Source of the DNA: Cereibacter sphaeroides 2.4.1
Lineage (GTDB): Bacteria; Pseudomonadota; Alphaproteobacteria; Rhodobacterales; Rhodobacteraceae
Length of the DNA: 32,000 bases
Direction of reading: 5' to 3'
Assembly (NCBI RefSeq): GCF_000012905.2
Contig: NC_007493.2
Location: forward strand, 3,000,001-3,032,000
Shown here: piece by piece, positions 1,583 through 29,375 of the stretch
How positions within the stretch are numbered: position 1 is the first letter of the stretch
How the letters are laid out: every line of letters begins with the position of its first letter
Made by a program: the position numbers and the translations under genes
Notes under the pieces: generated by a model
What the model saw: the letters and a program-made list of their open reading frames with translations, nothing else
What the model was told of the DNA's origin: nothing
The model's database searches: none

Positions 1583-2869
1583 TCACTTCCCGATGCAGAA
1601 GCTGGCAAAGATCTCGCCCAGAAGCGACTCCACATCCACCCTCCCCACGAGAGAGTCGAGGGAGCGGATCGCGCGTCGCAGGTCATCTGCCGCCAGTTCC
1701 GTGTGCTGTTGGCCCCTCAATAGCTCAGCCCGCACCGATTCCATAGCCCCGATTGCGCGTTCGATGGCGAGACGGTGCCGCTCGCGGGTCAAACTTCCGG
1801 CACCTGCAGTGCGTCCCAGAAGCCTCTCGCCGATGGCGGCCACGAGTTCTGGCACGCCCTCTCCCGTCCGGCCCGAGAGGCGCAGCCCCTGCCCCGGTCG
1901 AAGGTCTGCCTTTCCCTGCACAACCAGATCATCAGCCTGAACGGTGATGCCGGACAATGGTCCGCTGTCGTCCAGAAGGAAAACACGCAGGTCCGCGGCC
2001 TTGGCCCGGGTCACGGCGCGTTCGATGCCAAGGCTCTCGACAAGGTCCGACGTGTCCCGCAGTCCCGCCGTGTCCAGGAAGGTCACAGGAAGCCCGTCGA
2101 GATCCATCCGCACCTCGATTACATCGCGCGTCGTGCCGGCGATCTCAGAGGTGATCGCCGCCTCTCTTCGCGCCAGCGCATTGAGAAGCGTGGATTTCCC
2201 GGCATTGGGCGCGCCAACGATGGCGACCTCGAATCCGTCGCGGATCCGTTCCGCAATCCGCGATCCGTCGACCTCCCGCCGAAGATCCGCCAACAGGCCG
2301 TCGATCAGGGTCAGCACTTCGGGCGTCACATCGACCGGCACATCCTCATCGGCGAAATCGATGGTCGCCTCGAGCAGCGCCGCTGCCCGAATGAGGTCCG
2401 CCCGCCACCGCTCTGCCCGCTCACCGATGGCGCCGGAAAAGACCCGCATCGCCTGACGGCGCTGAGCTTCCGTCTCGGCATCGATCAGGTCAGCCAGCCC
2501 CTCGACCTGCGCGAGGTCGAGCCGACCGTTCTCCAGGGCCCGGCGGGTGAACTCCCCGGCTTCGGCCGCCCTCAGCCCGGGCAGGCCGGACAGGACCCGG
2601 AGCACCGAAGAGACGGCAGCAGGACTACCATGGAGATGCAGTTCGGCCGAGGTTTCACCAGTGAAACTGGCGCCAGCGCCGAAGAGCAGCACCAGCGCTT
2701 CGTCGAGAACTTCACCGTTCCACGTCAGACGCCGCAGGGCGGCGTGCCGGAGAGAAGGCAAAGGAACGCCGAACGCCTGCACCGCCTCATGCGACCGCGG
2801 TCCGGAAAGGCGCAAAACCGCCACTCCGGCCTTGCCGCGTGCGCTGGCCAAGGCGTAGATCGTGTCCAT
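1583..2869 (-). CDS. mnmE: tRNA modification GTPase MnmE (TrmE)
   Basis: 428-aa ORF starting [23 protein letters not shown], with G-domain [12 protein letters not shown] and DTAG motifs and the C-terminal CIGK tetrapeptide typical of MnmE. It sits directly upstream of mnmG. Confidence 0.95.
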
Positions 2870-2894
2870 TCCGGCGTCCTGTCGAGCGGGTCGC

Positions 2895-4163
2895 TCAGGT
2901 GTTCATGGAATCGAAGAATTCCGCGTTGCTCTTGGTCTGCCGCAGCTTGGAGATCAGGAACTCGATCGCATCGGTGGTGCCCATCGGGTTCAGGATGCGG
3001 CGCAGGACATAGGTCTTCTGCAGATCGGACTTGTCGACCAGCAGATCCTCTTTCCGGGTGCCAGATTTGAGGATGTCCATGGCGGGGAACACGCGCTTGT
3101 CGGCGACCTTCCGGTCAAGGACGATCTCGGAGTTGCCGGTACCCTTGAATTCTTCGAAGATCACTTCGTCCATCCGGCTGCCGGTATCGATCAGGGCGGT
3201 CGCGATGATCGTCAGCGACCCGCCTTCCTCGATGTTCCGCGCTGCGCCGAAAAACCTTTTCGGACGCTGAAGCGCGTTGGCATCGACGCCGCCGGTCAGC
3301 ACCTTGCCGGACGAGGGCACCACGGTGTTGAAGGCGCGCCCGAGGCGGGTGATCGAGTCGAGCAGGATCACCACGTCGCGCTTGTGCTCGACGAGGCGCT
3401 TGGCCTTCTCAATGACCATCTCGGCCACGGCGACGTGCCGCGTGGCGGGCTCGTCGAAGGTCGAGGAGACGACCTCCCCCTTCACCGACCGCTGCATGTC
3501 CGTGACCTCCTCGGGCCGCTCGTCGATGAGCAGCACGATCAGGTAGCACTCGGGGTGATTGGTCGCGATGGAGTGGGCGATGTTCTGCAGGAGCACCGTC
3601 TTGCCGGTCCGCGGCGGCGCCACGATCAGCCCGCGCTGCCCCTTCCCGATCGGCGCCACCAGATCGATGATGCGCGCGGAACGGTCCTTCATCGTGGGAT
3701 CGTCGACTTCCATCTTCAGCCGTTCATCGGGATAGAGCGGCGTGAGGTTGTCGAAGTGCACCTTGTGGCGCGCCCGTTCGGGATCGTCGAAGTTGATCTT
3801 CGTCACCCGCGTCAGGCTGAAATAGCGTTCGTTCTCGCGGGGCGCGACGATCACGCCCTCGATCGTGTCGCCGGTGCGCAACGAGAACTGACGCAGGATC
3901 TCGGGCGAGACGTAGATGTCGTCCGGGCCCGGCAGATAGTTGGCCTCGGGCGAGCGCAGGAAGCCGAAACCGTCCTGCAGCACCTCGAGCACGCCGTCTC
4001 CGCCGACTTCGTAGCCTTCCTCCGCATGTTCCTTGAGGATCGAGAACATCATCTCGCCCTTCCGCATGGAAGGCGCGTTCTCGATCTCCCACTCCTCGGC
4101 CATGGCCAGTAGATCGGCCGGAGTCTTGGCCTTCAGGTCAGCGAGGTTGAGACGTTCGTTCAT
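2895..4163 (-). CDS. rho: transcription termination factor Rho
   Basis: 422-aa ORF. It has the N-terminal [19 protein letters not shown]..., the Walker A motif PPRTGKT, and [17 protein letters not shown]. Confidence 0.97.
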
Positions 4164-4304
4164 GGCACTCTGCGCTCGTCAGGAGCGCCTCCGGAAGGGG
4201 GAGTCGCTGCAGCATAGGATGGGAAGATGCAATGGACCGGACGGCCCTGCAAGGCCGCACATAGGCGCTGCGACGCCGCGAGTCAATGATCTTGGGCCGG
4301 GGGC

Positions 4305-4769
4305 TCAGAAGCCCCAGTAGTTCCATTTCGCCACAGCGGAGAAGACGATCACCAGCATGAGGAGCGTCGGAAGCTCGTTCATCATGCGGTAGGTGCGCCC
4401 CTTGTGGCGGTTGGCGCCCGCCGCGAAGTCGCGCCGGCGGGCCGCGAGCCACATGTGAAATCCGGTCATCGCCAGAACGCAGGCGGCCTTCGTCCAGGGC
4501 CAGAGCATCGACCAGTCGACGATGCCCGGCGTGAAGACGAGGAGCAGGCCGAAGATCCAGGTCGCGATCATGGCCGGGTTCATGATCGCCCTCAGAAGCC
4601 GCCGCTCCATTGTCTGGAACAGCGCGTCCGTCTCGGTTCCGGCTTTCACGACCTCGGCGTGATAGACGAAGAGCCGGGGCAGGTAGAACAGCCCCGCCAT
4701 CCAGGCCAGCACCGAAATCACATGCAGCGACTTGGTCCACAGGTAGTAGTCGGCCAGGAACGTGCCCAT
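4305..4769 (-). CDS. hemJ: protoporphyrinogen oxidase HemJ (UPF0093/CopD-like membrane protein)
   Basis: The ORF contains WTKSLHVISVLAWMAGLFYLPRLFVYHAE, the HemJ signature as I remember it, and about 4 TM segments. I chose the ATG at 4769 (MGTFLADYY) because GAGGAG lies 6 nt upstream. An alternative ATG at 4796 exists. The 4949 start in the track is unlikely. Confidence 0.8.
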   Translation of the reverse strand: MGTFLADYYLWTKSLHVISVLAWMAGLFYLPRLFVYHAEVVKAGTETDALFQTMERRLLRAIMNPAMIATWIFGLLLVFTPGIVDWSMLWPWTKAACVLAMTGFHMWLAARRRDFAAGANRHKGRTYRMMNELPTLLMLVIVFSAVAKWNYWGF

Positions 4770-5184
4770 CGTCGTCTCCTCGAAGTGGTCGGCCATCCTC
4801 ATAAGAAAAGAAAGATTAGAAGGGAATGATGCAGTAGGGCGCAGGGATAACTGGATTTCCGATCTTACCCCTGCGCTTTTCCACAGGATCCCGCCTGGGG
4901 GCAGCGGTGTGTATAAGTGTGGAGAATTTCCGGACCCTCCGTGAAACACAAATCCGAACAGTGTGTTGCAGGAATTATTCTGTGTGGATAAGTTTCAGGC
5001 CGCTCCCCCCAGCCATGGGAGAGATGGATCGTCCACGGGAGGCGGGAAGCTTCGTCCACGAGTGGACAACTGTGGCTCTTTGCCCGATAACATGGCATCT
5101 TGACGGCCCATCGGTCGCCGACAGCCCGGCTTGTGCCGGATTCGCCGTCAGGAACAGAAGCAGACTATCCACAGCCTCCTCCCC
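4770..5184. other. candidate chromosomal replication origin (oriC) in the divergent hemJ/maf spacer
   Basis: Visibly AT-richer than its flanks. DnaA-box matches to TTATCCACA: TGTGGATAA at 4983-4991 (perfect, minus), TTTTCCACA at 4877-4885, TGTGGAGAA at 4918-4926 and CTATCCACA at 5165-5173 (one mismatch each). The neighbourhood rho-hemJ / maf-aroE-coaE-dnaQ is the conserved alphaproteobacterial origin neighbourhood as I remember it from Caulobacter and Rickettsia. Confidence 0.5.
4983..4991 (-). promoter_or_regulatory. perfect consensus DnaA box (TTATCCACA on the minus strand)
   Basis: The plus strand reads TGTGGATAA, an exact reverse complement of the 9-mer consensus. Confidence 0.6.
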
Positions 5185-12958: not shown

Positions 12959-14017
12959 TTGAAGACGATCAAGGGGCCTGCGCTGTTTCTGGCGCAGTTC
13001 GCGGGCGATGCTGCGCCCTTCAATTCATGGACGTCGATTACCCGCTGGGCGGCCGATTGCGGCTATGCGGGCGTCCAGGTGCCGACCTGGGACGCGCGCC
13101 TGTTCGATCTCGACCGGGCGGCGGAGTCGAAGGACTGGTGCGACCAGTTCAAGGGCGAGGCGGCCGAGGCGGGCGTCGAGGTGACCGAGCTTGCGAGCCA
13201 CCTGCACGGCCAGCTCGTCGCGGCCCATCCGGCCTATGACACGATGCTCGACGGTTTTGCCGATCCGTCCGTCCGCGGCAATCCGAAGGCGCGGCAGGAA
13301 TGGGCGGTCGACCGGGTGATGAAAGGCCTGACCGCCTCGCGCAATCTGGGGCTCAAGGCGATGGCCACCTTCTCGGGGGCGCTGGCCTGGCCCTATCTCT
13401 ATCCCTGGCCGCAGCGGCCCGCGGGCCTTGTCGAGACCGCCTTCGACGAACTGGCCGCCCGCTGGCGCCCGATCCTCGACCATGCCGAGGACTGCGGGAT
13501 CGACCTCTGCTACGAGATCCATCCCGGCGAGGACCTGCACGACGGCGTGACCTTCGAGATGTTCCTCGAGCGCGTCGGTGGCCATGCCCGCTGCAACATG
13601 CTCTACGATCCGTCGCACTATGTGCTTCAGGCGCTGGATTACCTCGACAATATCGACATCTACGGCAGCCGCATCCGCATGTTCCACGTCAAGGACGCCG
13701 AGCTGAACCCGACGGGGCGGCAGGGCGTCTATGGCGGCTTCCAGTCCTGGGTGAACCGGGCGGGGCGCTTCCGCAGCCTCGGCGACGGGCAGGTGGATTT
13801 CGGCGCGATCTTCTCGAAGCTCACCGCGCTCGATTTCGACGGCTGGGCGGTGGTCGAATGGGAATGCGCGCTGAAGCATCCCGAGGACGGGGCGCGCGAG
13901 GGGGCGGAGTTCGTCCGCAACCACATCATCCGCGTGACGCCCAACGCCTTCGACGATTTTGCGGGCGCAGGCACCGACGAGGCCGCCAACCGCGCCATGC
14001 TGGGGCTCGACCGATGA
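12959..14017 (+). CDS. sugar phosphate isomerase/epimerase (xylose-isomerase-like TIM barrel)
   Basis: The ORF contains KTIKGPALFLAQFAGDAAPFNSW...YEIHPGED...MFHVKDAE...DFDGWAVVEWE. The likely start is TTG 12959, with GGAGGGAGG about 8-10 nt upstream. Alternatives are ATG 12917 and the track start 12878. Confidence 0.85.
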   Translation: MKTIKGPALFLAQFAGDAAPFNSWTSITRWAADCGYAGVQVPTWDARLFDLDRAAESKDWCDQFKGEAAEAGVEVTELASHLHGQLVAAHPAYDTMLDGFADPSVRGNPKARQEWAVDRVMKGLTASRNLGLKAMATFSGALAWPYLYPWPQRPAGLVETAFDELAARWRPILDHAEDCGIDLCYEIHPGEDLHDGVTFEMFLERVGGHARCNMLYDPSHYVLQALDYLDNIDIYGSRIRMFHVKDAELNPTGRQGVYGGFQSWVNRAGRFRSLGDGQVDFGAIFSKLTALDFDGWAVVEWECALKHPEDGAREGAEFVRNHIIRVTPNAFDDFAGAGTDEAANRAMLGLDR

Positions 14018-18664: not shown

Positions 18665-19147
18665 TCTCCTCGATCCTGCCCGGCGACCTGCGCGAGCAGC
18701 GGATCGAACCGCTTCTTGGCCGCGCCCTTCATCGGCACCTCGGCCACGGCCGCCCTGTTCACGGGCTGGCCCACCTGGATCAGCTCCACGATCCCCATCG
18801 GGAAGTGCGGCGCGCATCGTGTCGCCCGGCGCTGCGGTGACGAAGGCGGGTACGAAGACCAGCCAACGGCCTGAGCATCTCGCATTCCTTCCGTCTGCTG
18901 CTCCGGGCCCAGCCCTCCCTGCGAAGCCGCTTTCTGCGCTGCCGTAAGCTCGGGCGATTCGGCTGCGGCCCCTCCGTGCGGCCAGCAAAGGCAGGGCGGA
19001 CGGCTTCTTCTGCGCGCGCAAACGATTGCGCTTGCAGTCGCAGCATTCTCCGCGCCAGCTCCCGCGGATTTTCGTTGACGGGTGGGGCGCGAGTCCGCAC
19101 CGTTCGGTCCTGCGGCCCGGGCCGCAGCGTAACGACCGATCTGGAGG

Positions 19148-19555
19148 ATGATGATGACCAAACCGGCCGAGACCTCCCGCACCTTCCTAGACACGATGAC
19201 CGAGCTGCTCTCCACCCTGTCGGTGGCCCCCATGGGCACGATCATGGCCAAGCGTATGCTCGACATGCAGCAGGGGATCGCGGGCGAGATGAACCAGGCG
19301 GCGCATGACTGGCTCGACCGCCGTCAGGCCGCCGTCAGCAGTCTCGTCGGCACCGCCCACAAGGTGATGGACAAGGGCTTTTCCGACACCGCGACCTATA
19401 CCTCGATGCAGGAATGGTATGGTGGCATGGTCGAGCGCCTGGCCGCCGACATGAAGAGCCCCTACGACCTGATGCTGGCTTGCAGCGCCCATGTGACGCC
19501 GCCGGTCGCCAAGCCTGCCGAGAAGACCGCCTCCACCTTCCGCCGCGCCGCCTGA
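19148..19555 (+). CDS. hypothetical protein (predicted all-helical, no family recognised)
   Basis: 135-aa ORF with the GGAGG Shine-Dalgarno motif immediately upstream of an ATGATGATG start cluster. Codon third positions are GC-rich. The product is MMMTKPAETSRTFLDTMTELLSTL...SMQEWYGGMVERLAADMKSPYDLM. Confidence 0.7.
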   Translation: MMMTKPAETSRTFLDTMTELLSTLSVAPMGTIMAKRMLDMQQGIAGEMNQAAHDWLDRRQAAVSSLVGTAHKVMDKGFSDTATYTSMQEWYGGMVERLAADMKSPYDLMLACSAHVTPPVAKPAEKTASTFRRAA

Positions 19556-19572
19556 GGCGACCGTCGACCGCA

Positions 19573-19603
19573 GGGCCGGAAGCGGTGCGCCCGCCTCCGG
19601 CCC
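19573..19603 (+). terminator. possible stem-loop after the hypothetical gene
   Basis: GGGCCGGA...TCCGGCCC forms an 8-bp stem with a 15-nt loop, followed by TTGCCTGTC. The large loop makes it weak. Confidence 0.3.
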
Positions 19604-19851
19604 TTGCCTGTCAGGCGGCTCTCGGCCGGCCGCCCGTCGCGATTTTCGCACGGCCATCAGGCACCCCCAGAATCCGCCGAGCCCCGGTCTTGCTGCGAAA
19701 TGCCGCAGGCCGGAGCGGCTAACCCATTCCAAAGGATGGGTATTCATGGCCCAAAGACATTTTCTCTCCGCGGGAACCTTCTGTAAGATGAAGGAAAGAA
19801 GGCTAAGACGCCGGTCTCTCCTCCGGCGCCAAGGGCCGAAGGACGATCGTT

Positions 19852-20130
19852 ATGAAAAAGACTATTGAGCGGTTGAACTGGGACGAACTGCTGGACCTCT
19901 ATGGACGGATCTCCAAGGCACTCGACGCCTGCGAGACCCGGCAAGCCGCCGCGAAGGCGCGATCCATGGCAGCAGCGATCTCCAAAGGGGCAGGAAGCGG
20001 GACGAAGCGCGTGAGCTACTTCAACCCGGCAAATCGCGCCGTGTCGTGGAATGGCCGCGGGCGGTGTCCGAACTGGTTCAAGGTGGCCATGGCTCAGGGG
20101 CGCACGCCCGAAGAACTGGCCTCCCTCTGA
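19852..20130 (+). CDS. H-NS family nucleoid-associated protein (HvrA/Spb-like)
   Basis: 92 aa. The N-terminus is coiled-coil-like, and the C-terminal VSYFNPANRAVSWNGRGRCPNWFKVAMAQGRTPEEL matches the alphaproteobacterial H-NS DNA-binding motif (Y.NP....tWsGRGR.P.W). The upstream region is AT-rich. Confidence 0.85.
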   Translation: MKKTIERLNWDELLDLYGRISKALDACETRQAAAKARSMAAAISKGAGSGTKRVSYFNPANRAVSWNGRGRCPNWFKVAMAQGRTPEELASL

Positions 20131-20137
20131 AAAGCCT

Positions 20138-20177
20138 GTCAACGGCCGGGTGGAGAGGGCTCCGGCCGGCCATTGAC
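20138..20177. terminator. bidirectional stem-loop between the convergent H-NS-like and NMO genes
   Basis: GTCAACGGCCGG...CCGGCCATTGAC forms a 12-bp stem with one C/A mismatch. It fills the 55-bp convergent gap. Confidence 0.5.
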
Positions 20178-20185
20178 GCTGTCGC

Positions 20186-21127
20186 TTACAGCCAGCCTTC
20201 GCCGCGAGCTTCCTCGGCGGCCCCGGAGACAGCCTCCCGATAGTCCGCGATCAGGCGACGGCAGAGCTCTGCCGCCTTCGGAATGTCGGAGATGCCGCCC
20301 ACGCCCTGCCCCGCCGACCAGACGTCGCGCCACACCTTTGCCTCGGAAGCCATGTCGAGATGCGGGGCCGCCCCACCCTCGGGATCGATCCCCGCAGCGG
20401 CGAGGCTCTGGCGCAGGAAGCTCGCCGGAACGCCGCTCACCTTCGGCGTATAGACGATGTCCGCCGCCGCGCTCTCGGCCACCATCCGTTTCTGTGCCTC
20501 GGACACCTGCGCCTCCTCGGTCGCGAGGAAGCGCGTGCCGAGATAGGCGAAGTCGGCGCCCATCATCCGGGCCGCTGCCACGTCCCGCCCGGTGTTCATC
20601 GCGCCCGACAGGACGATGGTGCCCGCGAAGAACGACCGGATCTCCGAGACCAGCGCGAAGGGGCTCAGCGTGCCCGCGTGCCCGCCCGCCCCCGCCGCCA
20701 CGGCAATGATGCCGTCGACGCCCGCCTCGGCGGCCTTGCGGGCATGGCGCGCATTCACGACATCGTGGAAGACGAGCCCGCCGTAGCCATGGACGGCCGC
20801 CACCAGCTCCGGCACTGCGCCGAGCGAGGTGATGACGAGCGGCACCTTTTCGGCCACGCAGACCGCCAGATCCGCCTCGAGCCGCGGGTTCGACCGATGG
20901 ACGATCAGATTGACCCCGAACGGCGCGGCATGGGGCTCGAGCCGGCCCTGGATCTCTTGCAGCCAGTCGCGGAACCCTTCGGTGGAGCGCTGGTTCAGCG
21001 CCGGGAAGGTGCCGAGGAGGCCTGCATTGCAGGTCTCCACCACCAGATCCGGGCCCGACGTGAGGAACATGGGCGCAGCGATCACGGGCGCCTTCAGGCG
21101 GCCCCTCAAGGCTTCAGGAACGGGCAT
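20186..21127 (-). CDS. nitronate monooxygenase (2-nitropropane dioxygenase family, FMN TIM barrel)
   Basis: The ORF reads MPVPEALRGRLKAPVIAAPMFLTSGPDLVVETCNAGLLGTFPALN...GVDGIIAVAAGAGGHAG. The ATG at 21127 has GAGGAGGA upstream. The 21394 start in the track is an extension. Confidence 0.9.
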   Translation of the reverse strand: MPVPEALRGRLKAPVIAAPMFLTSGPDLVVETCNAGLLGTFPALNQRSTEGFRDWLQEIQGRLEPHAAPFGVNLIVHRSNPRLEADLAVCVAEKVPLVITSLGAVPELVAAVHGYGGLVFHDVVNARHARKAAEAGVDGIIAVAAGAGGHAGTLSPFALVSEIRSFFAGTIVLSGAMNTGRDVAAARMMGADFAYLGTRFLATEEAQVSEAQKRMVAESAAADIVYTPKVSGVPASFLRQSLAAAGIDPEGGAAPHLDMASEAKVWRDVWSAGQGVGGISDIPKAAELCRRLIADYREAVSGAAEEARGEGWL

Positions 21128-21415
21128 CGGATCCTCCTCTCGCGTGGCGCGAGGTGACACCGCCTGCCGCGCTCCGGTCAACCGTTCCGCTGCGTCGGGG
21201 ACGGTGCGCGCGCGGGACACTGGCCGATGGGGATCCTTGACGAAAGCCGGCGGCCGGATCGAAAGGGTGGAGAGACGGGAGGTTTGCCGAACGAATATTC
21301 GGTAACAAACGCAAAGGGCTCTCAGAGACGGCGCCTCGCCGAGGATCGCAGGATGAGATGCGGTGCGCGGGCCGGTGTCACGCGAGGTCAGCACCCTTGG
21401 GACGACGGGAGAGGC

Positions 21416-21444
21416 GCGGGCGAGGGCGGATCGGCCTCGCCCGC
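21416..21444 (-). terminator. stem-loop downstream of the lipoprotein gene
   Basis: GCGGGCGAGG-9 nt-CCTCGCCCGC forms a perfect 10-bp stem, 8 nt past the stop at 21452. There is no U tract. Confidence 0.45.
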
Positions 21445-21451
21445 AGCCGGA

Positions 21452-21637
21452 TCACCGAATGACGGCACCGCCCACACCGCCGATCACGGCGCCCGTGATG
21501 GGGTCGTCCGCGATCACCTGGCCCGCGACGGCCCCGCCGAGGGCGCCGGTCGCGGCGCGCTGGGTGCGGGTGTCACCACAGGCGGCAACCGCCACGCTCA
21601 GCACGAGGGCGGGAAGCAGGAACTTGGGAATGCTCAT
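21452..21637 (-). CDS. small glycine-zipper lipoprotein
   Basis: 61 aa. MSIPKFLLPALVLSVAVAACGD has a lipobox (AVAAC), and the rest is a Gly-zipper, GALGGAVAGQVIADDPITGAVIGGVGGAV. GGAGGA lies upstream of the ATG. Confidence 0.75.
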   Translation of the reverse strand: MSIPKFLLPALVLSVAVAACGDTRTQRAATGALGGAVAGQVIADDPITGAVIGGVGGAVIR

Positions 21638-21656
21638 CGGGATCCTCCATGTCGGG

Positions 21657-21679
21657 TCCGGGCGGTGTGCCCGCCCGGA
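21657..21679 (-). terminator. stem-loop downstream of ackA
   Basis: TCCGGGCGG-TGTGC-CCGCCCGGA forms a perfect 9-bp stem about 95 nt after the ackA stop. There is no U tract. Confidence 0.35.
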
Positions 21680-21771
21680 ACATTACGCTGAGGAATGCGC
21701 AGAGCGGCAGGAACGTTCCGTCGCAGGGTCTGCCGCTGGCGAAGAATTGCCGTCAGGCGCCGAAAGACCGG

Positions 21772-22962
21772 TCAGGCAAGCGCCACCCCGGCCGAGTAAT
21801 GCGCGACCTCGCCGCAGTGAAGGGCGCGGAGGATCACCGCCTCCTCGTCCGTCGCGATCACGGCCGCCGTCACCCGACTGCCCGGAGCCGAGATCACACC
21901 CTGTCCCGCACCATTCGCGGCCGCATCCATCTCGAGGCCGAGCCAGCCGAGCCCCTCCATCACCCGCGCCCGGATCTCGGGCGCGTGCTGCCCGATTCCC
22001 GCGGTGAAGACCAGCGCGTCGAGGCCGCCCATTCCCGCACTCAGGGCGCCGATCTGGCGCAGGATGAAACGGACGAAGAGATCGACCGCCTCGGCCGCCT
22101 CGGGCCGGTCGCTGGCCAGAAGGTCGCGCATGTCGGGGCTGATCCCCGAGACGCCGGCGAGGCCGCTCTGCCTGCCGAGGATCGTCTCGATCTCCGGCCC
22201 CGTCAGGCCCTGCCGCAGGAAATGCAGGATCACGCCCGGGTCCAGCTGACCGCAGCGCGTGCCCATCATCAGCCCGTCGAGCGCGCTGAAGCCCATGGTC
22301 GTGTCGAGGCTGCGCAGGTTCTCCATGGCGCAGAGGCTCGCGCCGCTGCCGAGATGGGCCACGATCACCTTGCCGCGCCCGGTCTCGCCCAGCACCTCGG
22401 GCAGGCGGCCCGCGATGTAGTCGTAGGAGAGCCCGTGAAAGCCGTAGCGCAGGATGCCTTCCTCGGCCATGGCGCGGGGCAGGGCATAGAGCCGGGCAAG
22501 GCGCGGCCGGTCGTGGTGGAAGGCCGTGTCGAAGCAGGCAATCTGCGGCACACCCGGCCAGCGCGCCTCGACCGCCCGGACCCCGGCGAGGTTGAAGGGC
22601 TGGTGGCTGGGGGCGAGCGGCGAGAAGCTCTCCAGCCGCTCGATCACCTCGGGCGTGAGCAGGACCGGCGCGTTGTAGTCGGGCCCGCCATGCACCACCC
22701 GGTGTCCGGCCGCATGCAGGTCGAGCGGCCCGAGGCGGCCTTCGAGCAGGCCCAGAAGCCACAGCGTCAGCTCCTTGGCGTCCCGCGCATCGGCGGGCGC
22801 GCGCAGTTCGAGCGTGCCGTCGGGCAGGCTGGCCTTCAGCCGCGGCTGAAGGCCGATCCCCTCGATCAGGCCGCGGACGAGCGGGCGCGCATCCGCCACG
22901 TCGAACAGGCCGAACTTGACCGTGGAAGAGCCGATGTTCAGGACGAGCCAGACGGGTTTCAT
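21772..22962 (-). CDS. ackA: acetate (short-chain acyl) kinase
   Basis: It starts MKPVWLVLNIGSSTVKFGLF..., and also contains GHRVVHGG, RYGFHGLSY and FTAGIGQHAPEIR. I take the ATG at 22962 (ATGA overlap with the upstream gene). The 800-aa ORF in the track is this frame read on through the next gene. Confidence 0.93.
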   Translation of the reverse strand: MKPVWLVLNIGSSTVKFGLFDVADARPLVRGLIEGIGLQPRLKASLPDGTLELRAPADARDAKELTLWLLGLLEGRLGPLDLHAAGHRVVHGGPDYNAPVLLTPEVIERLESFSPLAPSHQPFNLAGVRAVEARWPGVPQIACFDTAFHHDRPRLARLYALPRAMAEEGILRYGFHGLSYDYIAGRLPEVLGETGRGKVIVAHLGSGASLCAMENLRSLDTTMGFSALDGLMMGTRCGQLDPGVILHFLRQGLTGPEIETILGRQSGLAGVSGISPDMRDLLASDRPEAAEAVDLFVRFILRQIGALSAGMGGLDALVFTAGIGQHAPEIRARVMEGLGWLGLEMDAAANGAGQGVISAPGSRVTAAVIATDEEAVILRALHCGEVAHYSAGVALA

Positions 22963-24380
22963 TCGGCCACCGGCTTCGTTGGCCGCGCCTCGGCATGGAG
23001 CCGGGCAAGGGCCGCCGAGGTGAGGCGCGCGGAAGGACCGTCGGCGCGGCTCGTCAGCATGATCGGCACCTTCGCCCCGAGCACAAGACCCGCAGCCTCG
23101 GCGCCGCCCAGATGGATCAGCTGCTTGGCGATCATGTTGCCACTCTCGAGGTTCGGCGCCACGAGGATGTCGGCGCGCCCCGCCACGTCCGAGACGATGC
23201 CCTTGGCCTTCACCGCTTCCATCGAAATCGCATTGTCGTAGGCGAGCGGCCCGTCGATCAGCCCGCCCACGATCTGGCCGCGGTCGTGCATCTTGCAGAT
23301 CGAGGCCGCGAGGAGCGTCGAGGGGATCTTGCCCGTCACCGTCTCGACCGCCGACAGGAGCGCCGTGCGCGGGCACTCGATCCCCAGCGCCATGACGAGG
23401 TCGATGGCATTCTGAACGATGTCCTTCATCGTCTCGAGGTCGGGCGCGATGTTGATCGCGGCATCGGTGATGAAGAGGATCCGGTCCACGTCCGGCACGT
23501 CGAGCGCGAAGACATGGCTGAGGCGCCGCTCGGTCCGCAGACCCGTGTCGCGGCGGAGCACCGCCGACAGCAGCTCGTCGGTGTGCAGCTTGCCCTTCAT
23601 CAGCGCGCCCGCGCGTCCGTCGCGCACCAGATCCACCGCCACTTCGGCCGAGGCATGGCTGTGGGGGGTGTCGACGATGCGGCTCTCGTCCAGCGTGACA
23701 TTGGCCGCGGCCGCCGTGGCGAGGATCCGGGCCTTCGGCCCCACCCACCAGGGCGTGATGAGGCCTGCGCCTTCCGCCTGGATCGCGCCGAGAAGGCTCA
23801 GGTCGTCGCAGGGATGGACGATGGCCGTGGGCAGCGGAGGCAGGCTCCGCGCGGCGAGGATGAGGTTGGCAAAGCGCGCGCCCGGCGTGTGCAGCCGCAC
23901 CTCGGGCAGGTGCGAGACCGGGCGGCGCACCTTCTCGCGCGGGGCCATCACCAGCGCCTCGCCGGTGATGACCAGTTCTCCCGCCTGATTGAGGCAGAGG
24001 CAGTCGAGCGTGACCTTGGCCGAGGCCATGTCCTTCTCGCGCACCGTCACCCGCACGGTGATCCTGTCGCCGGGCGAGACCGGGCGGCGGAAGCGCAGCG
24101 ACTGGCCGAGGTAGATCGTGCCGGGGCCGGGCAGGCGGGTGCCCAGCACCGCCGAGATCAGCGCGCCGCCCCACATGCCGTGGGCGATGACATGGTGAAA
24201 GCCCGTCTCGGCCGCATAGGTCGCATCGAGATGGGCCGGGTTCACGTCGCCCGACATGACGGCGAACAGCTCGATGTCCTCGGGGGTCAGCACGCGGTCC
24301 ACCTCGGCGCTCTCGCCGATCTGGAGTTCCTCCAGCGTCCGGTTCTCGACCGTGGTGATGGAAGGATCACATCCGAACAT
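22959..24380 (-). CDS. bifunctional MaoC-type (R)-enoyl-CoA hydratase / phosphate acyl(acetyl/butyryl)transferase fusion
   Basis: 473 aa. The N-terminal hot-dog MaoC part includes FAVMSGDVNPAHLD...HGMW. The C-terminal 300 aa resemble the PTA_PTB fold (ITDAAINIAPDLE...GPLAYDNA...APNLESGNM). Confidence 0.9.
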   Translation of the reverse strand: MFGCDPSITTVENRTLEELQIGESAEVDRVLTPEDIELFAVMSGDVNPAHLDATYAAETGFHHVIAHGMWGGALISAVLGTRLPGPGTIYLGQSLRFRRPVSPGDRITVRVTVREKDMASAKVTLDCLCLNQAGELVITGEALVMAPREKVRRPVSHLPEVRLHTPGARFANLILAARSLPPLPTAIVHPCDDLSLLGAIQAEGAGLITPWWVGPKARILATAAAANVTLDESRIVDTPHSHASAEVAVDLVRDGRAGALMKGKLHTDELLSAVLRRDTGLRTERRLSHVFALDVPDVDRILFITDAAINIAPDLETMKDIVQNAIDLVMALGIECPRTALLSAVETVTGKIPSTLLAASICKMHDRGQIVGGLIDGPLAYDNAISMEAVKAKGIVSDVAGRADILVAPNLESGNMIAKQLIHLGGAEAAGLVLGAKVPIMLTSRADGPSARLTSAALARLHAEARPTKPVAE

Positions 24381-25125
24381 GTCGGCCTCCGTCGATGTGG
24401 GTCACGGTTCCGGTGACGCCCGAGGCGGCATCGGAGGCGAGGAAGGCGGCCACGGCACCCACCTCGTCGATGGTCACGAGACGCCGCTCGGGCGAGCGGG
24501 TCTTGGCATCCTCGATCAGCGCGTCGAAATGGTCGATGCCGCTCGCTGCGCGGGTCGCGATCGGGCCGGGCGAGAGCACGTTGGCCCGGATCCCCTGCGG
24601 CCCGAGCTCGGCCGCCACATGGCGGGTGCAGGCTTCGAGCGCGGCCTTCACCGGACCCATGATGTTGTAATGGTCCACCACCTTCTCGGCGCCGTAGTAG
24701 CTGACCGTCATCAGGCTGCCGCCCGCGCTCATCAGCGGTTCGGCCAGCTTCGCCATCCGCAGGAACGAGTGGCAGGAGATGTCCATGGCCTGTGCGAAGC
24801 CCCGGGCCGAACAGTCGGTGACGCGGCCGTGCAGATCCTCCTTCGGGCAGAAGGCCACCGAATGGAGCAGGAAGTCGAGACGCCCCCAGCGTTGCCTGAC
24901 GCTCTCGAAGACCGCTTCCAGCGCATCTTCCTGCGACAGGTCGAGCGGCAGCAGCGCCGCGGCGTCCACCTCCTCGGCCACCGGCTGGACATGGGGCAGG
25001 GCGCGCTCGTTCAGATAGGTCAGCGCAAGCTCGGCCCCGGCGCCCGCGAAGGCGCGGGCGCATCCGGCGGCGATCGACTGGCCGTTGGCGACACCCACCA
25101 CCAGCCCATATTTTCCCTTCAGCAT
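24367..25125 (-). CDS. fabI: enoyl-[ACP]/enoyl-thioester reductase, FabI family (SDR)
   Basis: 252 aa starting MLKGKYGLVVGVANGQSIA..., with HSVAF, SYYGAEKVVDHYNIMGPVKAALE (the Y-x6-K catalytic pair) and NVLSPGPI. Confidence 0.9.
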   Translation of the reverse strand: MLKGKYGLVVGVANGQSIAAGCARAFAGAGAELALTYLNERALPHVQPVAEEVDAAALLPLDLSQEDALEAVFESVRQRWGRLDFLLHSVAFCPKEDLHGRVTDCSARGFAQAMDISCHSFLRMAKLAEPLMSAGGSLMTVSYYGAEKVVDHYNIMGPVKAALEACTRHVAAELGPQGIRANVLSPGPIATRAASGIDHFDALIEDAKTRSPERRLVTIDEVGAVAAFLASDAASGVTGTVTHIDGGRHVRM

Positions 25126-25137
25126 CGTCCCGGCCCT

Positions 25138-26859
25138 TCAGCGTTGCAGGATGTAGGTGCCCGGCGCCTCGCAGAGCGCAGGGTAGCCGCTCCGGGCGTT
25201 GCCCATCGGGGGCAGCTTGCCCTTGGGCGTGGAGCGTTCGGCGAGCCAGGCGCCCCAGGCGGGCCACCACGACCCCTCGACCGGCGCCGTTTCGGCGAAC
25301 CATTCGTCGGCGTCGCGGTAGGGATCGTCGCGCCCGGTGGTGGCGATGCGGAAATGCCGCCGCGGATGCCCCGGCTCGGACACGATGCCGGCATTGTGCC
25401 CGCCCGAGGTGAGCACGAAGGTCGTCTCGGTCTCGGTCAGCCGCTGGATCTTGAACACCGACCGCCAGGGCGCGACATGGTCCGTCTCGGTGCCCACCGC
25501 GAGGATCGGCAGCCGCAGCTCGGTCAGCGACAGCGCATGGCCCTCGAGCTCGAACTTGCCCTCGGCGAAGCGGTTCTCGAGGAACAGATGGCGCAGATAT
25601 TCCGAATGCATCCGGTAGGGCATCCGGGTCGAATCCGCGTTCCAGGTCATCAGGTCGTTCGGATGCGGCCGCTCGCCCATCATGTATTCATGGATCATCC
25701 GCGACCAGATCAGATCGTTCGACCGCAGAAGCGTGAAGGCCCCGCTCATCTGATCGCTGTCGAGATAGCCCTGATGCCACATCATGTCCTCGAGCAGCGC
25801 CACCTGCGCCTCCGAGATGAAGAGCGCGAGCTCGCCCGCTTCCGAGAAATCGACCTGCGCCGCGAACAGCGTCATCGAGGCCAGCCGCTCGTCGTGATCG
25901 TGGGCCATGCGCGCGGCCATGATCGACAGAAGCGTGCCGCCGAGGCAGTAGCCCGCCGCATGGACCTTCGGCGCGCCGGTGATCGTCTGGATCGCCTTCA
26001 GCGCGGCGCGCGGCCCCTGATCGAGATAGTCGATCAGACCCAGATCGCGGTCCTCGGACTCGGGGTTGCGCCAGGAGATCATGAAGACGGTGAAGCCCTG
26101 CGCCACCAGCCAGCGGACCAGCGAATTCTGCTCGCTCAGGTCGAGGATGTAATATTTCATGATCCAGGCCGGCACGATTAGCACCGGCTCGGGATGCACC
26201 TCCCTGGTGGTGGGGCTGTACTGGATCAGCTCCATCAGATGCGTGCGCAGGACGACCTTGCCCGGTGTCGCGGCCAGCGTCTCGCCGATGCGGAACCCGC
26301 CTTCGTCCATCGGCACGCCGGTCGCGAGGCGGGCCATGTCGCCCGCGAAATTCATCGCGCCCTGCATGAGGTTGGCGCCCCGCGTCTCTGTCGTGCGGGC
26401 CAGCACCTCGGGGTTGAGGAACGGGTTGTTCGAGGGCGACCAGACGTCGAGCATCTGGCGCACCGAAAAGCTCAGCGCCGCCTCATGCGCCCGGTCCATC
26501 CCGCGCAGGCCGGTGGTGGCCGTCTGCCACCAGTCCTCGGTCAGAAGGAAGCTGTCGCGCAGCGCGGCGAAGGGCTGGCGGCTCCACGCCTCCGAAGCGT
26601 AGCGGCGGTCCCTGACCGGAGCCTCGTGCGGCTGCAGCCCCGCTTGCATCAAGGCGGCGGACGCAGTTGCCGCCTTCTCCCACAGCTCCGCCTGTTTTCC
26701 GGGGGCCGCGGCCAGATGCATCATCCAGTCGAGCGCAGCCGTCGCCAGCACCGAGGGCGCCAGACCCCGCGTCATGCCTGCGATGGCGGCGCGTGCCGCC
26801 CGGTCCAGCGCTTGCCCATAGGCCGGCGCACCTTCCGCATTCCACTTCATGTCAGACAT
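25138..26859 (-). CDS. phaC: class I poly(R)-hydroxyalkanoate synthase-like protein (PhaC paralogue)
   Basis: 573 aa with the PhaC N-terminal domain, including PSNNPFLNPEVL. The lipase box has Cys as nucleophile (GYCLGG). It also has WNADSTRMP and a GGHNAGIV His region. Confidence 0.9.
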   Translation of the reverse strand: MSDMKWNAEGAPAYGQALDRAARAAIAGMTRGLAPSVLATAALDWMMHLAAAPGKQAELWEKAATASAALMQAGLQPHEAPVRDRRYASEAWSRQPFAALRDSFLLTEDWWQTATTGLRGMDRAHEAALSFSVRQMLDVWSPSNNPFLNPEVLARTTETRGANLMQGAMNFAGDMARLATGVPMDEGGFRIGETLAATPGKVVLRTHLMELIQYSPTTREVHPEPVLIVPAWIMKYYILDLSEQNSLVRWLVAQGFTVFMISWRNPESEDRDLGLIDYLDQGPRAALKAIQTITGAPKVHAAGYCLGGTLLSIMAARMAHDHDERLASMTLFAAQVDFSEAGELALFISEAQVALLEDMMWHQGYLDSDQMSGAFTLLRSNDLIWSRMIHEYMMGERPHPNDLMTWNADSTRMPYRMHSEYLRHLFLENRFAEGKFELEGHALSLTELRLPILAVGTETDHVAPWRSVFKIQRLTETETTFVLTSGGHNAGIVSEPGHPRRHFRIATTGRDDPYRDADEWFAETAPVEGSWWPAWGAWLAERSTPKGKLPPMGNARSGYPALCEAPGTYILQR

Positions 26860-26943
26860 GGATCGTTCCGTGTTCCGAGAGCTCTGGAGCCCGCTTACGC
26901 TTCTTTCATGAAATCGGTGTAATGCAGCCGCAGCATTTTTGAT

Positions 26944-26957
26944 TTGAGCAAGATCAA
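26944..26957. promoter_or_regulatory. FNR/FnrL-type box TTGAG-CAAG-ATCAA
   Basis: It has one mismatch to TTGAT-N4-ATCAA. Its centre is about 91 bp upstream of the phaC-like ATG (26859), inside an AT-rich patch of the divergent spacer. Confidence 0.6.
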
Positions 26958-27165
26958 GTTATTAATTTGCCGTGATTTAGGGCATCGCAATCTTTGCCGC
27001 ATTGCAGCACAACGGCTTGGCGCAGCCCTGCGACGGATGGTCGCGCTGCAGGATGCGGCATTGACCAGGCAGGGCCGCGCCCTAGTTCCCCGATTCGTGG
27101 GTGAGGTGAGTCTCCGTGGTCTCCGGGCAACGGAAAGGCGCCTGTCGAGTTCCGAGCGGTGTATC

Positions 27166-28104
27166 ATGCGCAGGGTCCGTCTTGTCCGTCTGCTGTTCGT
27201 GTTCAACCTCATGATTGCGGTCATGATGGGGGCAGGGATCGCGCTCTGGACGCCCGACCTGCCACGGGCAGAGCTCGAGGGGCGCTATCTCGCCCGGCCG
27301 GGCGATCTGGTGTCGGTGGCGGGCACCACGATCCACATGCGCGACCGCGGCCCGAAGGGCGCGCCCGCCGTCATCCTCATTCACGGCTTCGGATCGAGCC
27401 TGCATACCTGGAGCGCCTGGCAGGACCGGATGGCCGCCACCCGGCATGTCATCAGCTTCGATCTGCCCGGCCTGGGCCTCTCGCCGCCCGATGCGACCGG
27501 AGACTATTCCGACCGGCGGGTGGCCGAAATCCTGATCGCCATCATGGACCGAGCGGGCCTGCATCAGGCCGACCTGATCGGCAATTCCATCGGCGGGCGC
27601 ATCGCCTTCACCTTCGCCGCCGCCCACCCCGAACGCGTGCGCAAGCTCGTCCTCGTGTCGCCCGACGGCTACGAGAGCCCGGGCTTCACCTATGGCGAGG
27701 CGCCCGAGGTGCCGCTTCTTGCCGAGGCTCTGCGCTACTGGCTGCCGCGGCCGCTGCTGCGCCTGTCGCTCGGCATGGCCTATGCCGATCCCAATGTCAT
27801 GTCCGACCAGATCGTCAGCCGCTACTACGATCTGATCCGCGCACCGGGTGTCCGCGAGGCGCTGATCGACCGGATGCGGCAGACCGTCCTCGTCCCGCCC
27901 GAGACGCTGCTGGCGCGGGTGCACGCGCCGACGCTGCTCCTCTGGGGCGAGGAGGATGCGGTGATCCCGGTCTCGAACGCCCCGTCCTACGCGCGGGCCC
28001 TGCCCGATGTGCGCACCGTGCTCCTGCCCCGCATGGGCCATGTGCCGCAGGAAGAGGGGCCTGACCGCTCGCTCGCCCCGGTCGAGGCCTTTCTCGCCGG
28101 CTGA
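27166..28104 (+). CDS. alpha/beta-fold hydrolase with N-terminal membrane anchor
   Basis: It starts MRRVRLVRLLFVFNLMIAVMMGAGIAL (TM helix). It has the oxyanion motif ILIHGFGSS, the nucleophile elbow GNSIGG, and a C-terminal GHVPQEE. The ATG at 27166 is internal to ORF 26944..28104. Confidence 0.88.
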   Translation: MRRVRLVRLLFVFNLMIAVMMGAGIALWTPDLPRAELEGRYLARPGDLVSVAGTTIHMRDRGPKGAPAVILIHGFGSSLHTWSAWQDRMAATRHVISFDLPGLGLSPPDATGDYSDRRVAEILIAIMDRAGLHQADLIGNSIGGRIAFTFAAAHPERVRKLVLVSPDGYESPGFTYGEAPEVPLLAEALRYWLPRPLLRLSLGMAYADPNVMSDQIVSRYYDLIRAPGVREALIDRMRQTVLVPPETLLARVHAPTLLLWGEEDAVIPVSNAPSYARALPDVRTVLLPRMGHVPQEEGPDRSLAPVEAFLAG

Positions 28105-28444: not shown

Positions 28445-28906
28445 ATGGTCGGGATCAGATCCTACGGTGCGCCGGAACCCGCGGCGCTGGATGCCCTCGA
28501 GACGCTGCATCTGCGCTCCCTCGACGTTCTGGCCGGGTTCGAGACCATGGTGGAGCGGGCCGAGCCCGCGTTCCGGCCCACCGCCGCGCGGTTTCGCGAT
28601 CTGCACCGCGTTCAATCGGAGGAGCTGGCCGAGATGATCGCCCGCTTCGGACGCGAGCCCGAGAGCAAGGGCAGCCTCATGTCCACCGTCAACCGTGCGG
28701 TCGTCTCGCTTCGGTCGCTGGTGAACGGCGTCGATGGCAATATCATCGACCAGATTCAGGACGGAGAGCAGCATGTGGTCACCGCCTTCGACGATGCGCT
28801 GGGCGAGGGGCAACCGATCGACGTGACCGCACGGCTCCGCTCGATGCGGCGCGAACTCTGCCTCCTCCTGTTCGAGACCCAGGCCGCCGCCGCCACAGGC
28901 CGGTGA
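28445..28906 (+). CDS. PA2169/DUF2383 family four-helix-bundle (ferritin-like) protein
   Basis: 153 aa. The pattern LDALETLHLRSLDVLAGFETMVERAE...GSLMSTVNRAVVSLRS...IIDQIQDGEQHVVTAFDDAL fits the family as I remember it. GGGAGAAAGAG lies upstream of the ATG. Confidence 0.78.
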   Translation: MVGIRSYGAPEPAALDALETLHLRSLDVLAGFETMVERAEPAFRPTAARFRDLHRVQSEELAEMIARFGREPESKGSLMSTVNRAVVSLRSLVNGVDGNIIDQIQDGEQHVVTAFDDALGEGQPIDVTARLRSMRRELCLLLFETQAAAATGR

Positions 28907-28952: not shown

Positions 28953-29375
28953 TCAGCCGCTTGCGTCGGCGTCTCCCTTGGACAGGGACGCGGCGATGGT
29001 CCTGTGGAGCTCCGCCACGTCCTCGGGGCCGCTCAGATCCAGCCGCTCGAGGTCGGGCGCAAGGGCGCGAAGTTCCTTGCGGGACACGATTCGCATGGAC
29101 CAGTCCGGGAAGCGGCGCGCGGTGATCGGCTCGAGGTCGAAGGCGAGGATCTCCTGATGCCGGGGGTCGGCAGAGATCAGGCGGAAGAGCTCGTCGCAGG
29201 CCGAGCGCGGCCCTTCGATGGTCTGCACGAAATGCACGCCGTTGTAGAGCAGGATGCCGGTGATGCCGAGGCGCAGGTTCCTGACCCGGCTCGCCCGCAT
29301 GATCTGCACGATGTCCGCCACCGGATCGGCCAGCCGCACGCGGCTTCGATAGGTCAGGGATACCAGCTCATCCAT
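28953..29375 (-). CDS. blrB: short BLUF-domain blue-light photoreceptor (BlrB-like)
   Basis: 140 aa. The BLUF hallmarks are all present: Tyr in LTYRSRV, Gln in FVQTIEG, and Trp/Met in FPDWSM. The length and sequence match my recollection of R. sphaeroides BlrB. Confidence 0.92.
   Translation of the reverse strand: MDELVSLTYRSRVRLADPVADIVQIMRASRVRNLRLGITGILLYNGVHFVQTIEGPRSACDELFRLISADPRHQEILAFDLEPITARRFPDWSMRIVSRKELRALAPDLERLDLSGPEDVAELHRTIAASLSKGDADASG

Follow-up and report, generated by a model that had tools for sequence, protein, structure and literature searches.

Gene clusters that combine a polyhydroxyalkanoate (PHA) synthase with a phosphotransacylase and an acetate kinase have been described in several proteobacterial genera, and one of them lies in the 32-kb stretch of Cereibacter sphaeroides DNA (the window) that was analysed here. 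It consists of four genes, which encode a PHA synthase paralogue (PhaC2), an enoyl reductase of the FabI type, a fusion of a MaoC-type hydratase with a phosphotransacylase (Pta), and a kinase of the AckA family. The cluster is known as RSP_1257-1254, an operon of Rhodobacter (Cereibacter) sphaeroides 2.4.1 that is activated by FnrL, and it shares with that operon the FnrL 14-mer, the site spacing, the gene order and the gene products, without any structural difference. As a genomic feature it is already known: the operon is annotated, it has been validated by chromatin immunoprecipitation (ChIP) and its synteny has been described in several genera. Dufour et al. 2010 and Imam et al. 2014 treated it as a regulon member only ('phbC fabI', 'polyhydroxyalkanoic synthase') and its biochemistry was not addressed there. 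The first-pass annotation of this DNA, made from the letters alone, had held that such a co-operonic arrangement has no experimentally established function; this stands for the biochemical function, while the layout and the oxygen control had already been described, and the genome map gains no new element. What is new here is the breadth of the distribution, the enrichment of FNR boxes, the acidic-helix FabI clade, the alternation of PhaC with DUF3141 and the features of the hydratase that suggest short-chain substrates. With these observations a four-carbon (C4) fermentative hypothesis takes a more concrete form and becomes easier to test, but it is not established by them.

In Burkholderia cenocepacia the genes of the lxa locus sit behind an FNR/Anr-like TGA-N6-TCA motif, and in low oxygen its PHA synthase, Pta/Ptb and acetate kinase genes were 224-, 116- and 75-fold up, respectively (Sass et al. 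2013). Deletion of the locus lowers the anoxic survival of the bacterium. The Burkholderia homologues are BCAM0293, BCAM0297 and BCAM0298. The lxa locus of strain J2315 resembles the sphaeroides operon in its FNR-like motif, class I PHA synthase, phosphate acetyl/butyryl transferase and acetate kinase. However, lxa is an island of 50 genes, whereas the sphaeroides operon is a compact unit of four genes which includes a FabI. The island also contains universal stress proteins, a class II ribonucleotide reductase, alcohol dehydrogenases and an acetoacetyl-CoA (coenzyme A) reductase, none of which was found in the window; the gene calls flanking the operon are a hydrolase, PLDc_N, DUF2383, BLUF and kdp genes on one side and sugar ABC transport genes on the other. 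Two further lxa components, the ABC/HlyD transporter and a P-type cation ATPase, are recurrent neighbours of the fusion gene in other genomes.

The phaC genes of group D1 in Burkholderia sensu lato, which were described from genome synteny, accompany an 'unusual' phaJ-pta fusion, ackA and fabI, so that the same four protein families are present as in sphaeroides. In group D1, unlike in sphaeroides, fabI follows ackA, the oxygen control was not analysed, and the authors proposed that acetate is stored into PHA. Herbaspirillum seropedicae has a phaC2-pta-ackA operon, and a genomic island of Pseudomonas aeruginosa contains a class I.3 phaC, DUF3141, pta, ackA, fabI, phbB, paaJ and an EmrA/RbbA/YadH pump. 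In Sinorhizobium meliloti an orfA-pta-ackA-fabI operon, with which the group D1 clusters have been compared, was reported to be controlled by phosphate starvation through PhoB (Summers et al. 1999, as summarised in a review), and the same review gives the names phosphotransacetylase and acetate kinase for the Pta and AckA relatives. The S. meliloti operon is similar to that of sphaeroides in its Ptb-like Pta (60% identity with the C-terminal domain of the fusion), its Ack-family kinase and its acidic-helix FabI; it differs in having DUF3141 in the PhaC slot (2748-4964 of the extracted pSymB locus, L083), in the lack of MaoC and in the reported PhoB rather than FNR control.

The clostridial butyrate fermentation (thl-hbd-crt-bcd/etf, ptb-buk) is alike in the overall chemistry proposed below, which would lead from 3-hydroxybutyryl-CoA derived from acetoacetyl-CoA to butyrate and ATP, and in the Ptb-like transacylase. 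In sphaeroides, however, an (R)-specific hot-dog hydratase takes the place of crotonase, a FabI-type NADH reductase of the short-chain dehydrogenase/reductase (SDR) fold that of the flavin-dependent Bcd/Etf, and an Ack-family kinase that of Buk, while a PHA synthase is attached; the steps are proposed here from the sequence.

Layout and oxygen control of the operon

The operon and its regulatory site have the following features in the window.

26944-26957, strand not applicable: FnrL (FNR/CRP-family) binding palindrome TTGAGCAAGATCAA, a 9/10 match to TTGAT-N4-ATCAA
25138-26859, minus strand: phaC2 (RSP_1257), 573 aa, PhaC-like, a class-I-like PHA synthase paralogue
24367-25125, minus strand: fabI paralogue (RSP_1256), 252 aa, NADH enoyl-thioester reductase of the 'acidic helix' clade
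22959-24380, minus strand: MaoC-Pta fusion (RSP_1255), 473 aa
23901-24380, minus strand: MaoC/PhaJ (R)-specific enoyl-CoA hydratase domain of the fusion, residues ~1-160, PF01575
22959-23879, minus strand: Ptb-like phosphotransacylase domain of the fusion, residues ~168-473, PF01515
21772-22962, minus strand: ackA-family acyl kinase (RSP_1254), 396 aa

The tight packing of the four minus-strand genes, noted in the first pass, was reproduced at every coordinate and junction by the listing and translation of the open reading frames (ORFs). The phaC2 and fabI genes are separated by a spacer of 12 nt (25126-25137), fabI and the fusion gene overlap by 14 nt (24367-24380), and the fusion gene and ackA overlap by the 4 nt of an ATGA (22959-22962), through which ackA is translationally coupled to the fusion. 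The boundaries of all four genes agree with the public gene calls for the identical protein set. The exact fusion protein was found in Cereibacter (Rhodobacter) sphaeroides assemblies with like neighbours, namely the divergent alpha/beta hydrolase, PLDc_N, DUF2383, a 140-aa BLUF protein and kdp. The window has a high GC content (about 65-72%), and scanning of positions 21300-27300 for sigma-70 promoters and intrinsic terminators revealed none, including none inside the operon; the ends of the operon are therefore taken from the distances between the genes and from the operon as published. That the genes form a single operon had been proposed before, and the FnrL-activated transcription unit RSP_1257-4 is indeed already in the literature.

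The first pass had also placed an FNR box about 91 bp upstream of the first ATG. The centre of TTGAGCAAGATCAA is 91.5 bp 5' of the phaC2 ATG (26859), and transcription would start near 26909 if it is a class II site. At one mismatch or less, TTGAT-N4-ATCAA has two sites in the window, compared with 0.22 +/- 0.48 in shuffled sequences; the second FNR-type palindrome is TTGAAGACGATCAA at 12959-12972. In the FnrL ChIP-seq of strain 2.4.1 the corresponding motifs are at positions 3013043 (TTGAAGACGATCAA) and 3027028 (TTGAGCAAGATCAA) of chromosome 1, the former being assigned to RSP_1243-2, a LacI-family regulator, with 6.3-fold enrichment (Imam et al. 2014). The spacing of the two palindromes is 13,985 bp in the window and in the 2.4.1 genome alike. 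Since both sites match published motifs with this identical spacing, the locus could be identified as RSP_1257-RSP_1254 of 2.4.1 or of a strain nearly identical to it.

TTGAGCAAGATCAA is more than a chance match, since the identical 14-mer is the published FnrL ChIP-chip peak motif of the entry 'RSP1257-4, +, phbC fabI' (Dufour et al. 2010). In the ChIP-seq experiment this site had an enrichment of 31.47-fold with positive regulation, and the wild type to fnrL-mutant expression ratios were 3.29 for RSP_1257, 3.9 for RSP_1256, 5.99 for RSP_1255 and 2.31 for RSP_1254, compared during anaerobic photosynthetic growth on acetate (Imam et al. 2014). FnrL has thus been shown to occupy the box in vivo and to activate all four genes under anoxic conditions, and the predicted FnrL-type regulation is confirmed by published ChIP-chip, ChIP-seq and transcripts which are 2.3-6-fold lower in the fnrL mutant. 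These ChIP and expression data describe illuminated growing cells and not dark starvation. The Rrf2-family regulator MppG represses RSP_1257-4, which is one of its nine high-confidence targets (Imam et al. 2014). The intergenic region with the FnrL box is shared by the divergent alpha/beta hydrolase gene RSP_1258 (27166-28104, plus strand), the wild type to fnrL ratio of which was 1.08, i.e. it is FnrL-independent (Imam et al. 2014).

The four encoded proteins

The fusion protein matched the NF006045 profile over nearly its whole length (profile positions 4-464 of 467) with 728.8 bits against a cut-off of 282, the family name being an annotation only. Its hydratase domain scored 144 bits with P. 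aeruginosa PhaJ1 (5cpg, ~55% identity) and 98 bits with Aeromonas caviae PhaJ (1iq6). The D-x-N-P-x-H motif is kept, SGDVNPAH of RSP_1255 corresponding to SGDRNPVH of PhaJ1 and SEDFNPLH of A. caviae PhaJ, and D45, N47 and H50 are invariant or nearly so in the alignment of the fusion orthologues. In A. caviae PhaJ the residues L65 and V130 close the acyl pocket and restrict the enzyme to C4-C6 substrates. Leu is found at the equivalents of both in the fusion, and the domain looks short-chain specific and PhaJ1-like.

In the case of the transacylase domain, the alignment with a solved Ptb (7vg9) gave 205 bits and that with a solved Pta (1td9) 49 bits. The score with the Ptb model TIGR02706 was 289.2 bits, which is under the cut-off of 410.5, and with the Pta model TIGR00651 only 64.5 bits (cut-off 311.2). 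By these scores the domain is far closer to the phosphate butyryltransferases than to classical Pta. Literature searches for a characterised MaoC-Pta fusion, for FnrL together with acetate kinase in sphaeroides and for Dinoroseobacter gave no functional study.

The FabI paralogue RSP_1256 reached 431.9 bits with NF005717 (cut-off 337) and remained under the cut-offs of all other FabI models. Its NCBIfam name is enoyl-ACP (acyl carrier protein) reductase FabI. The catalytic Tyr-x6-Lys of the SDR fold is kept (YNIMGPVK, aligned with solved FabIs). ACP is docked on E. coli FabI by the basic residues K201, R204 and K205. Their equivalents in RSP_1256 are D, D and A; none of the 27 operon-linked orthologues has a basic residue at the K201 or R204 position, nor has the copy in the S. 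meliloti operon, and at the R204 position there is always Asp or Glu. According to transposon sequencing (Tn-seq), RSP_1256 is non-essential while the other FabI genes, RSP_3176 and RSP_2344, are essential (Burger et al. 2017). It was asked in the first pass whether this copy might be the essential fatty-acid enzyme; it turns out to be a dispensable third paralogue. Since the docking residues are acidic or non-basic and the gene is non-essential, a CoA ester rather than an ACP substrate is suggested for RSP_1256. The loss of the docking residues is only suggestive, because these positions vary among housekeeping FabIs too (G, R and Y in Brucella).

In PhaC2 the Pfam profile search identified the PhaC_N, PHBC_N and Abhydrolase_1 domains. 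Its score of 534.1 bits with TIGR01838 is under the cut-off of 622.65, and by its sequence it is a divergent, 'group D'-like paralogue. Aligned to a solved PHA synthase (PDB 9knj, 362 bits), it has an intact Cys-Asp-His triad, GYCLGG, TDHVAPW and GGHNAG falling on the catalytic motifs; the Cys lipase box GYCLGG had been recognised correctly in the first pass. When RSP_1257 ('phaC2') was over-expressed in R. sphaeroides, the PHA polymerase activity rose from 0.7 to 3.4 U/g protein and polyhydroxybutyrate (PHB) increased (PMC6390342). This shows that PhaC2 is able to polymerise 3-hydroxybutyryl-CoA (3HB-CoA).

RSP_1254 has the ASKHA acetokinase fold, with 343 bits for PF00871 and 329.6 bits for TIGR00016 (cut-off 293.4). 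It does not reach the butyrate kinase model TIGR02707, with 24.4 bits against a cut-off of 289.1, and the Buk-type kinase considered earlier was accordingly not borne out; the enzyme belongs to the Ack family. The equivalents of the catalytic N7, R91, D148, H180, R241 and E384 are all kept. The substitution L122S (residue 119 of RSP_1254, Leu122 of the Methanosarcina acetate kinase) is found in this organism only, Leu being present in 57 of 72 orthologues. The acyl pocket gives no clear lead on the chain length of the substrate: the changes shared by the clade are limited to N124Q and P232A, V93 and F179 are retained, and L122S occurs in one of the 72 orthologues, that of this organism.

Distribution and candidate chemistry

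The fusion architecture was found in at least 8000 protein clusters and, in a scan with one genome per species, in at least 598 species across the Alpha-, Beta- and Gammaproteobacteria; many of the loci are from Rhodocyclales, Zoogloea and other sludge organisms. The neighbourhoods were counted in 57 fusion loci with at least 4 kb on each side. The ackA gene directly follows the fusion in 49 of them, a PhaC2 type is nearby in 23 and a FabI type in 21, while the exact gene order of the window occurs in nine. An ABC ATPase/HlyD-type efflux system recurs near the fusion gene in 25 loci, a P-type cation ATPase in 10, and the a and c subunits of F-type ATPase in six each. The ABC/HlyD and ATPase neighbours may mean that the export of products or the homeostasis of ions is connected with the module. 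De novo clustering of the neighbouring ORFs gave many shadow-frame clusters in these GC-rich loci, and several representatives without a Pfam match were dropped.

In three Janthinobacterium loci (L058, L061, L071) DUF3141 stands immediately upstream of the fusion in place of PhaC2. The similarity of DUF3141 to PhaC2 is weak but colinear over the G-N-C-Q-A-G box (G-x-C-x-x-G), the Asp motif and the His motif, which suggests that DUF3141 is a PhaC-like Cys enzyme and functionally interchangeable with PhaC in the module. As judged from these loci, the recurring unit is a Cys-type alpha/beta hydrolase (PhaC or DUF3141), a predicted Ptb-like transacylase with or without the hydratase, an Ack and an acidic-helix FabI.

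FNR-type boxes (score at least 9/10 with a TGA...TCA core) were counted over the whole of the fusion loci. There were 45 in 1.17 Mb, about 12-fold more than the 3.6 +/- 2.1 in shuffled sequences, and they were densest at 1-4 kb upstream and, counted from the start of the fusion gene, at 2-3 kb downstream. The predicted oxygen-responsive control of the fusion neighbourhood is, on these counts, a recurrent and not a universal trait.

We tentatively favour, with somewhat less than even confidence, the explanation that the operon is the local version of a widespread proteobacterial low-oxygen module acting at the acetyl-CoA/(R)-3HB-CoA node, that is, a hypoxic acyl-CoA node. Under limited respiration, AckA and the Ptb-like Pta domain would together make acyl-phosphates, then acids and ATP, from short acyl-CoAs; acetyl-CoA would almost certainly be a substrate of this pair, and C4 acyl-CoAs probably. 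Surplus reductant would leave as C4 products of (R)-3HB-CoA by two routes. By one of them PhaC2 would polymerise (R)-3HB-CoA to PHB; by the other the fused PhaJ-type domain would dehydrate it to crotonyl-CoA, which the non-ACP FabI would reduce with NADH to butyryl-CoA, and the latter would exit via the same Pta-Ack pair, giving ATP. The hydratase-transacylase fusion would tie the C4 branch to the phosphorylating exit.

The sequence from 3HB-CoA to crotonyl-CoA, butyryl-CoA, butyryl-phosphate and finally butyrate plus ATP seems enzymatically plausible. In the acid-forming direction the product of the hydratase can reach the transacylase only by way of enoyl reduction, which fits the role of a CoA-directed FabI. 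Because a catalytically intact hydratase stays fused to it in hundreds of species, the distribution argues that the transacylase handles something up- or downstream of the C4 enoyl/hydroxyacyl-CoA, and not acetyl-CoA alone. Since RSP_1257 acts as a polymerase on over-expression, PHB more likely serves as an electron sink in parallel than as the feedstock, even if 3HB-CoA released from PHB could join the route. The earlier scheme, in which PHB is converted to butyrate with a gain of ATP, is therefore retained in part: the enzyme families are chemically coherent, while the polymer-consuming direction is disfavoured. A further-reaching form of the explanation, which we regard as rather doubtful, is a hitherto unrecognised, FNR-controlled butyrate (C4-acid) fermentation via (R)-intermediates in many respiratory Proteobacteria, leading from PhaA/PhaB through PhaJ, a CoA-specific FabI and the Ptb-like fusion to Ack, with PhaC or DUF3141 as a polymer buffer on the 3HB-CoA pool.

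If such a C4 fermentative exit is real, it would represent a new enzymatic way of forming butyrate and would connect PHB metabolism with substrate-level phosphorylation. By producing ATP and re-oxidising NADH, the route could explain the persistence of 'obligate aerobes' and of dark phototrophs without oxygen. It would also give a handle on how aerobes survive anoxia and on the redox balance of phototrophs employed to produce PHB or H2. The module spans hundreds of proteobacterial species, including Burkholderia pathogens, whose hypoxia locus with homologues of these genes is needed for full anoxic persistence. Each of the four proteins is soluble and encoded by a single gene, and the organism lends itself to genetic work.

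Several observations speak against the favoured explanation. The literature examined holds no substrate data on the fusion or on the FabI and Ack clades concerned, and it documents neither butyrate excretion by R. sphaeroides nor butyryl substrates or butyrate formation. The kinase retains V93 and F179 of the Methanosarcina acetate pocket, and the clade-wide changes in it are mild. A phaC2 paralogue under FixK2 control in Bradyrhizobium diazoefficiens was reported not to be required for PHB synthesis. A box of at least 8/10 precedes the inferred first gene in only 21 of 76 loci (background 4.7%), a low count because the operon starts are poorly defined, for which reason the locus-wide density test was used instead. 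Only the fusion and ackA are present locally in 24 of the 57 loci, so that FabI and PhaC may be optional, and the S. meliloti pSymB operon (DUF3141, unfused pta, ackA, fabI) has no MaoC domain at all. These last two observations mean that the four-gene pathway is not an invariant unit; the adjacency of fusion and ackA is well supported, while that of the whole set is not.

Other explanations have to be weighed against the same data. The operon might be a plain acetate-forming ATP pathway beside a separate PHB electron sink, comparable to the Anr-dependent pyruvate fermentation in the survival of P. aeruginosa, with Pta-AckA acting on acetyl-CoA only and the MaoC and FabI proteins supplying or trimming 3-hydroxyacyl-CoA, or being marginal. 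This is the published view for Burkholderia and Bradyrhizobium, where Pta-Ack would serve for ATP and PHA as an electron sink; the conserved catalytic residues and most of the acetate pocket of Ack, the loci with fusion and ackA alone, and the names given to the S. meliloti relatives in the review are all in accord with it. It is hard to see, however, why at least 598 species should keep a catalytically conserved hydratase on the transacylase if no C4 metabolite ever reached the latter, and neither the Ptb-like character of the transacylase nor the recurrence of a dedicated, non-essential FabI clade without ACP-docking residues is accounted for. We consider this explanation somewhat unlikely. 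The pathway could also run in the assimilatory direction, AckA and Pta converting anoxic acetate, crotonate, 3-hydroxybutyrate or butyrate to acyl-CoA, PhaJ hydrating and PhaC2 storing PHA, which resembles the polyphosphate-accumulating bacteria. PhaJ enzymes classically run in the hydration direction, PhaC2 is an active polymerase and many of the loci come from Rhodocyclales, Zoogloea and sludge organisms; in addition, the Burkholderia literature proposes 'feeding acetate into PHA synthesis', the lxa-deletion mutant was faster on beta-hydroxybutyrate, and the FnrL dependence was measured on acetate medium. Nevertheless, enoyl reduction by NADH is effectively irreversible, which leaves FabI without a role, ATP would be spent just when it is scarce, PhaA/PhaB are outside the operon here and most fusion-ackA loci have no PhaC2, so we hold the assimilatory direction to be unlikely.

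The use of stored PHB as the substrate in dark anoxia, with PhaC2 or a depolymerase freeing 3HB-CoA by thiolysis for conversion through crotonyl- and butyryl-CoA to butyrate and ATP, appears quite improbable. Its enzymatic plausibility equals that of the favoured explanation, thiolytic cleavage of PHB to 3HB-CoA is known from the granules of Ralstonia eutropha, and the route would be redox-balanced if a second 3HB-CoA were oxidised to two acetates, as in crotonate dismutation. The over-expression of PhaC2 raises net PHB synthesis, however, the expression and ChIP data are not from starving cells in the dark, and the operon contains no depolymerase. RSP_1258 was considered as a depolymerase partner and rejected, being FnrL-independent and having only generic alpha/beta-hydrolase matches. 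Lastly, the FabI paralogue and the hot-dog dehydratase might add type II fatty-acid capacity for the intracytoplasmic membrane at low oxygen. The membranes of C. sphaeroides do proliferate at low oxygen, the NCBIfam label of RSP_1256 is that of an enoyl-ACP reductase, and the metabolic model originally had this gene as an isozyme for fatty-acid elongation (Burger et al. 2017). Yet RSP_1256 is no backup for the two Tn-seq-essential FabI genes, acidic residues replace the basic ACP-docking ones across the clade, the dehydratase domain is PhaJ-like (CoA esters) and not FabZ/FabA-like, and the module occurs also in many non-phototrophs, which together make a function in lipid synthesis highly improbable.

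Flanking genes

Directly downstream of ackA, a gene for a predicted lipoprotein of 61 aa with a glycine-zipper (YMGG-like) motif (21451-21636, minus strand) has its own start and is probably outside the operon. Between this gene and the sugar ABC-transporter genes lies a strain-variable insertion (~18700-21400), which one public assembly (L002) has and another with an identical fusion protein (L001) lacks. It contains a gene of the nitronate monooxygenase (NMO) family (20186-21127, minus strand), an H-NS-like gene (19852-20130, plus strand) and an ORF of 135 aa (19148-19555, plus strand). The insertion, with its NMO/FabK-family flavoprotein and H-NS-like gene, may have been acquired horizontally. 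The possibly FabK-like NMO gene (a 313-aa gene call) was considered as a member of the operon and was rejected: it lies ~640 nt past ackA, behind the small lipoprotein gene, it has no FNR box and it is absent from another strain. A '2-nitropropane dioxygenase' is strongly hypoxia-induced in B. cenocepacia (Sass et al. 2013).

On the other side of the operon, the kdp genes lie toward the end of the window, and no link of the BLUF, DUF2383 or kdp genes to the operon was seen. Just past the hydrolase gene there are a DUF2383 protein (28445-28906, plus strand) and the 140-aa BLUF blue-light sensor protein (28953-29375, minus strand), which we take to be BlrB-like.

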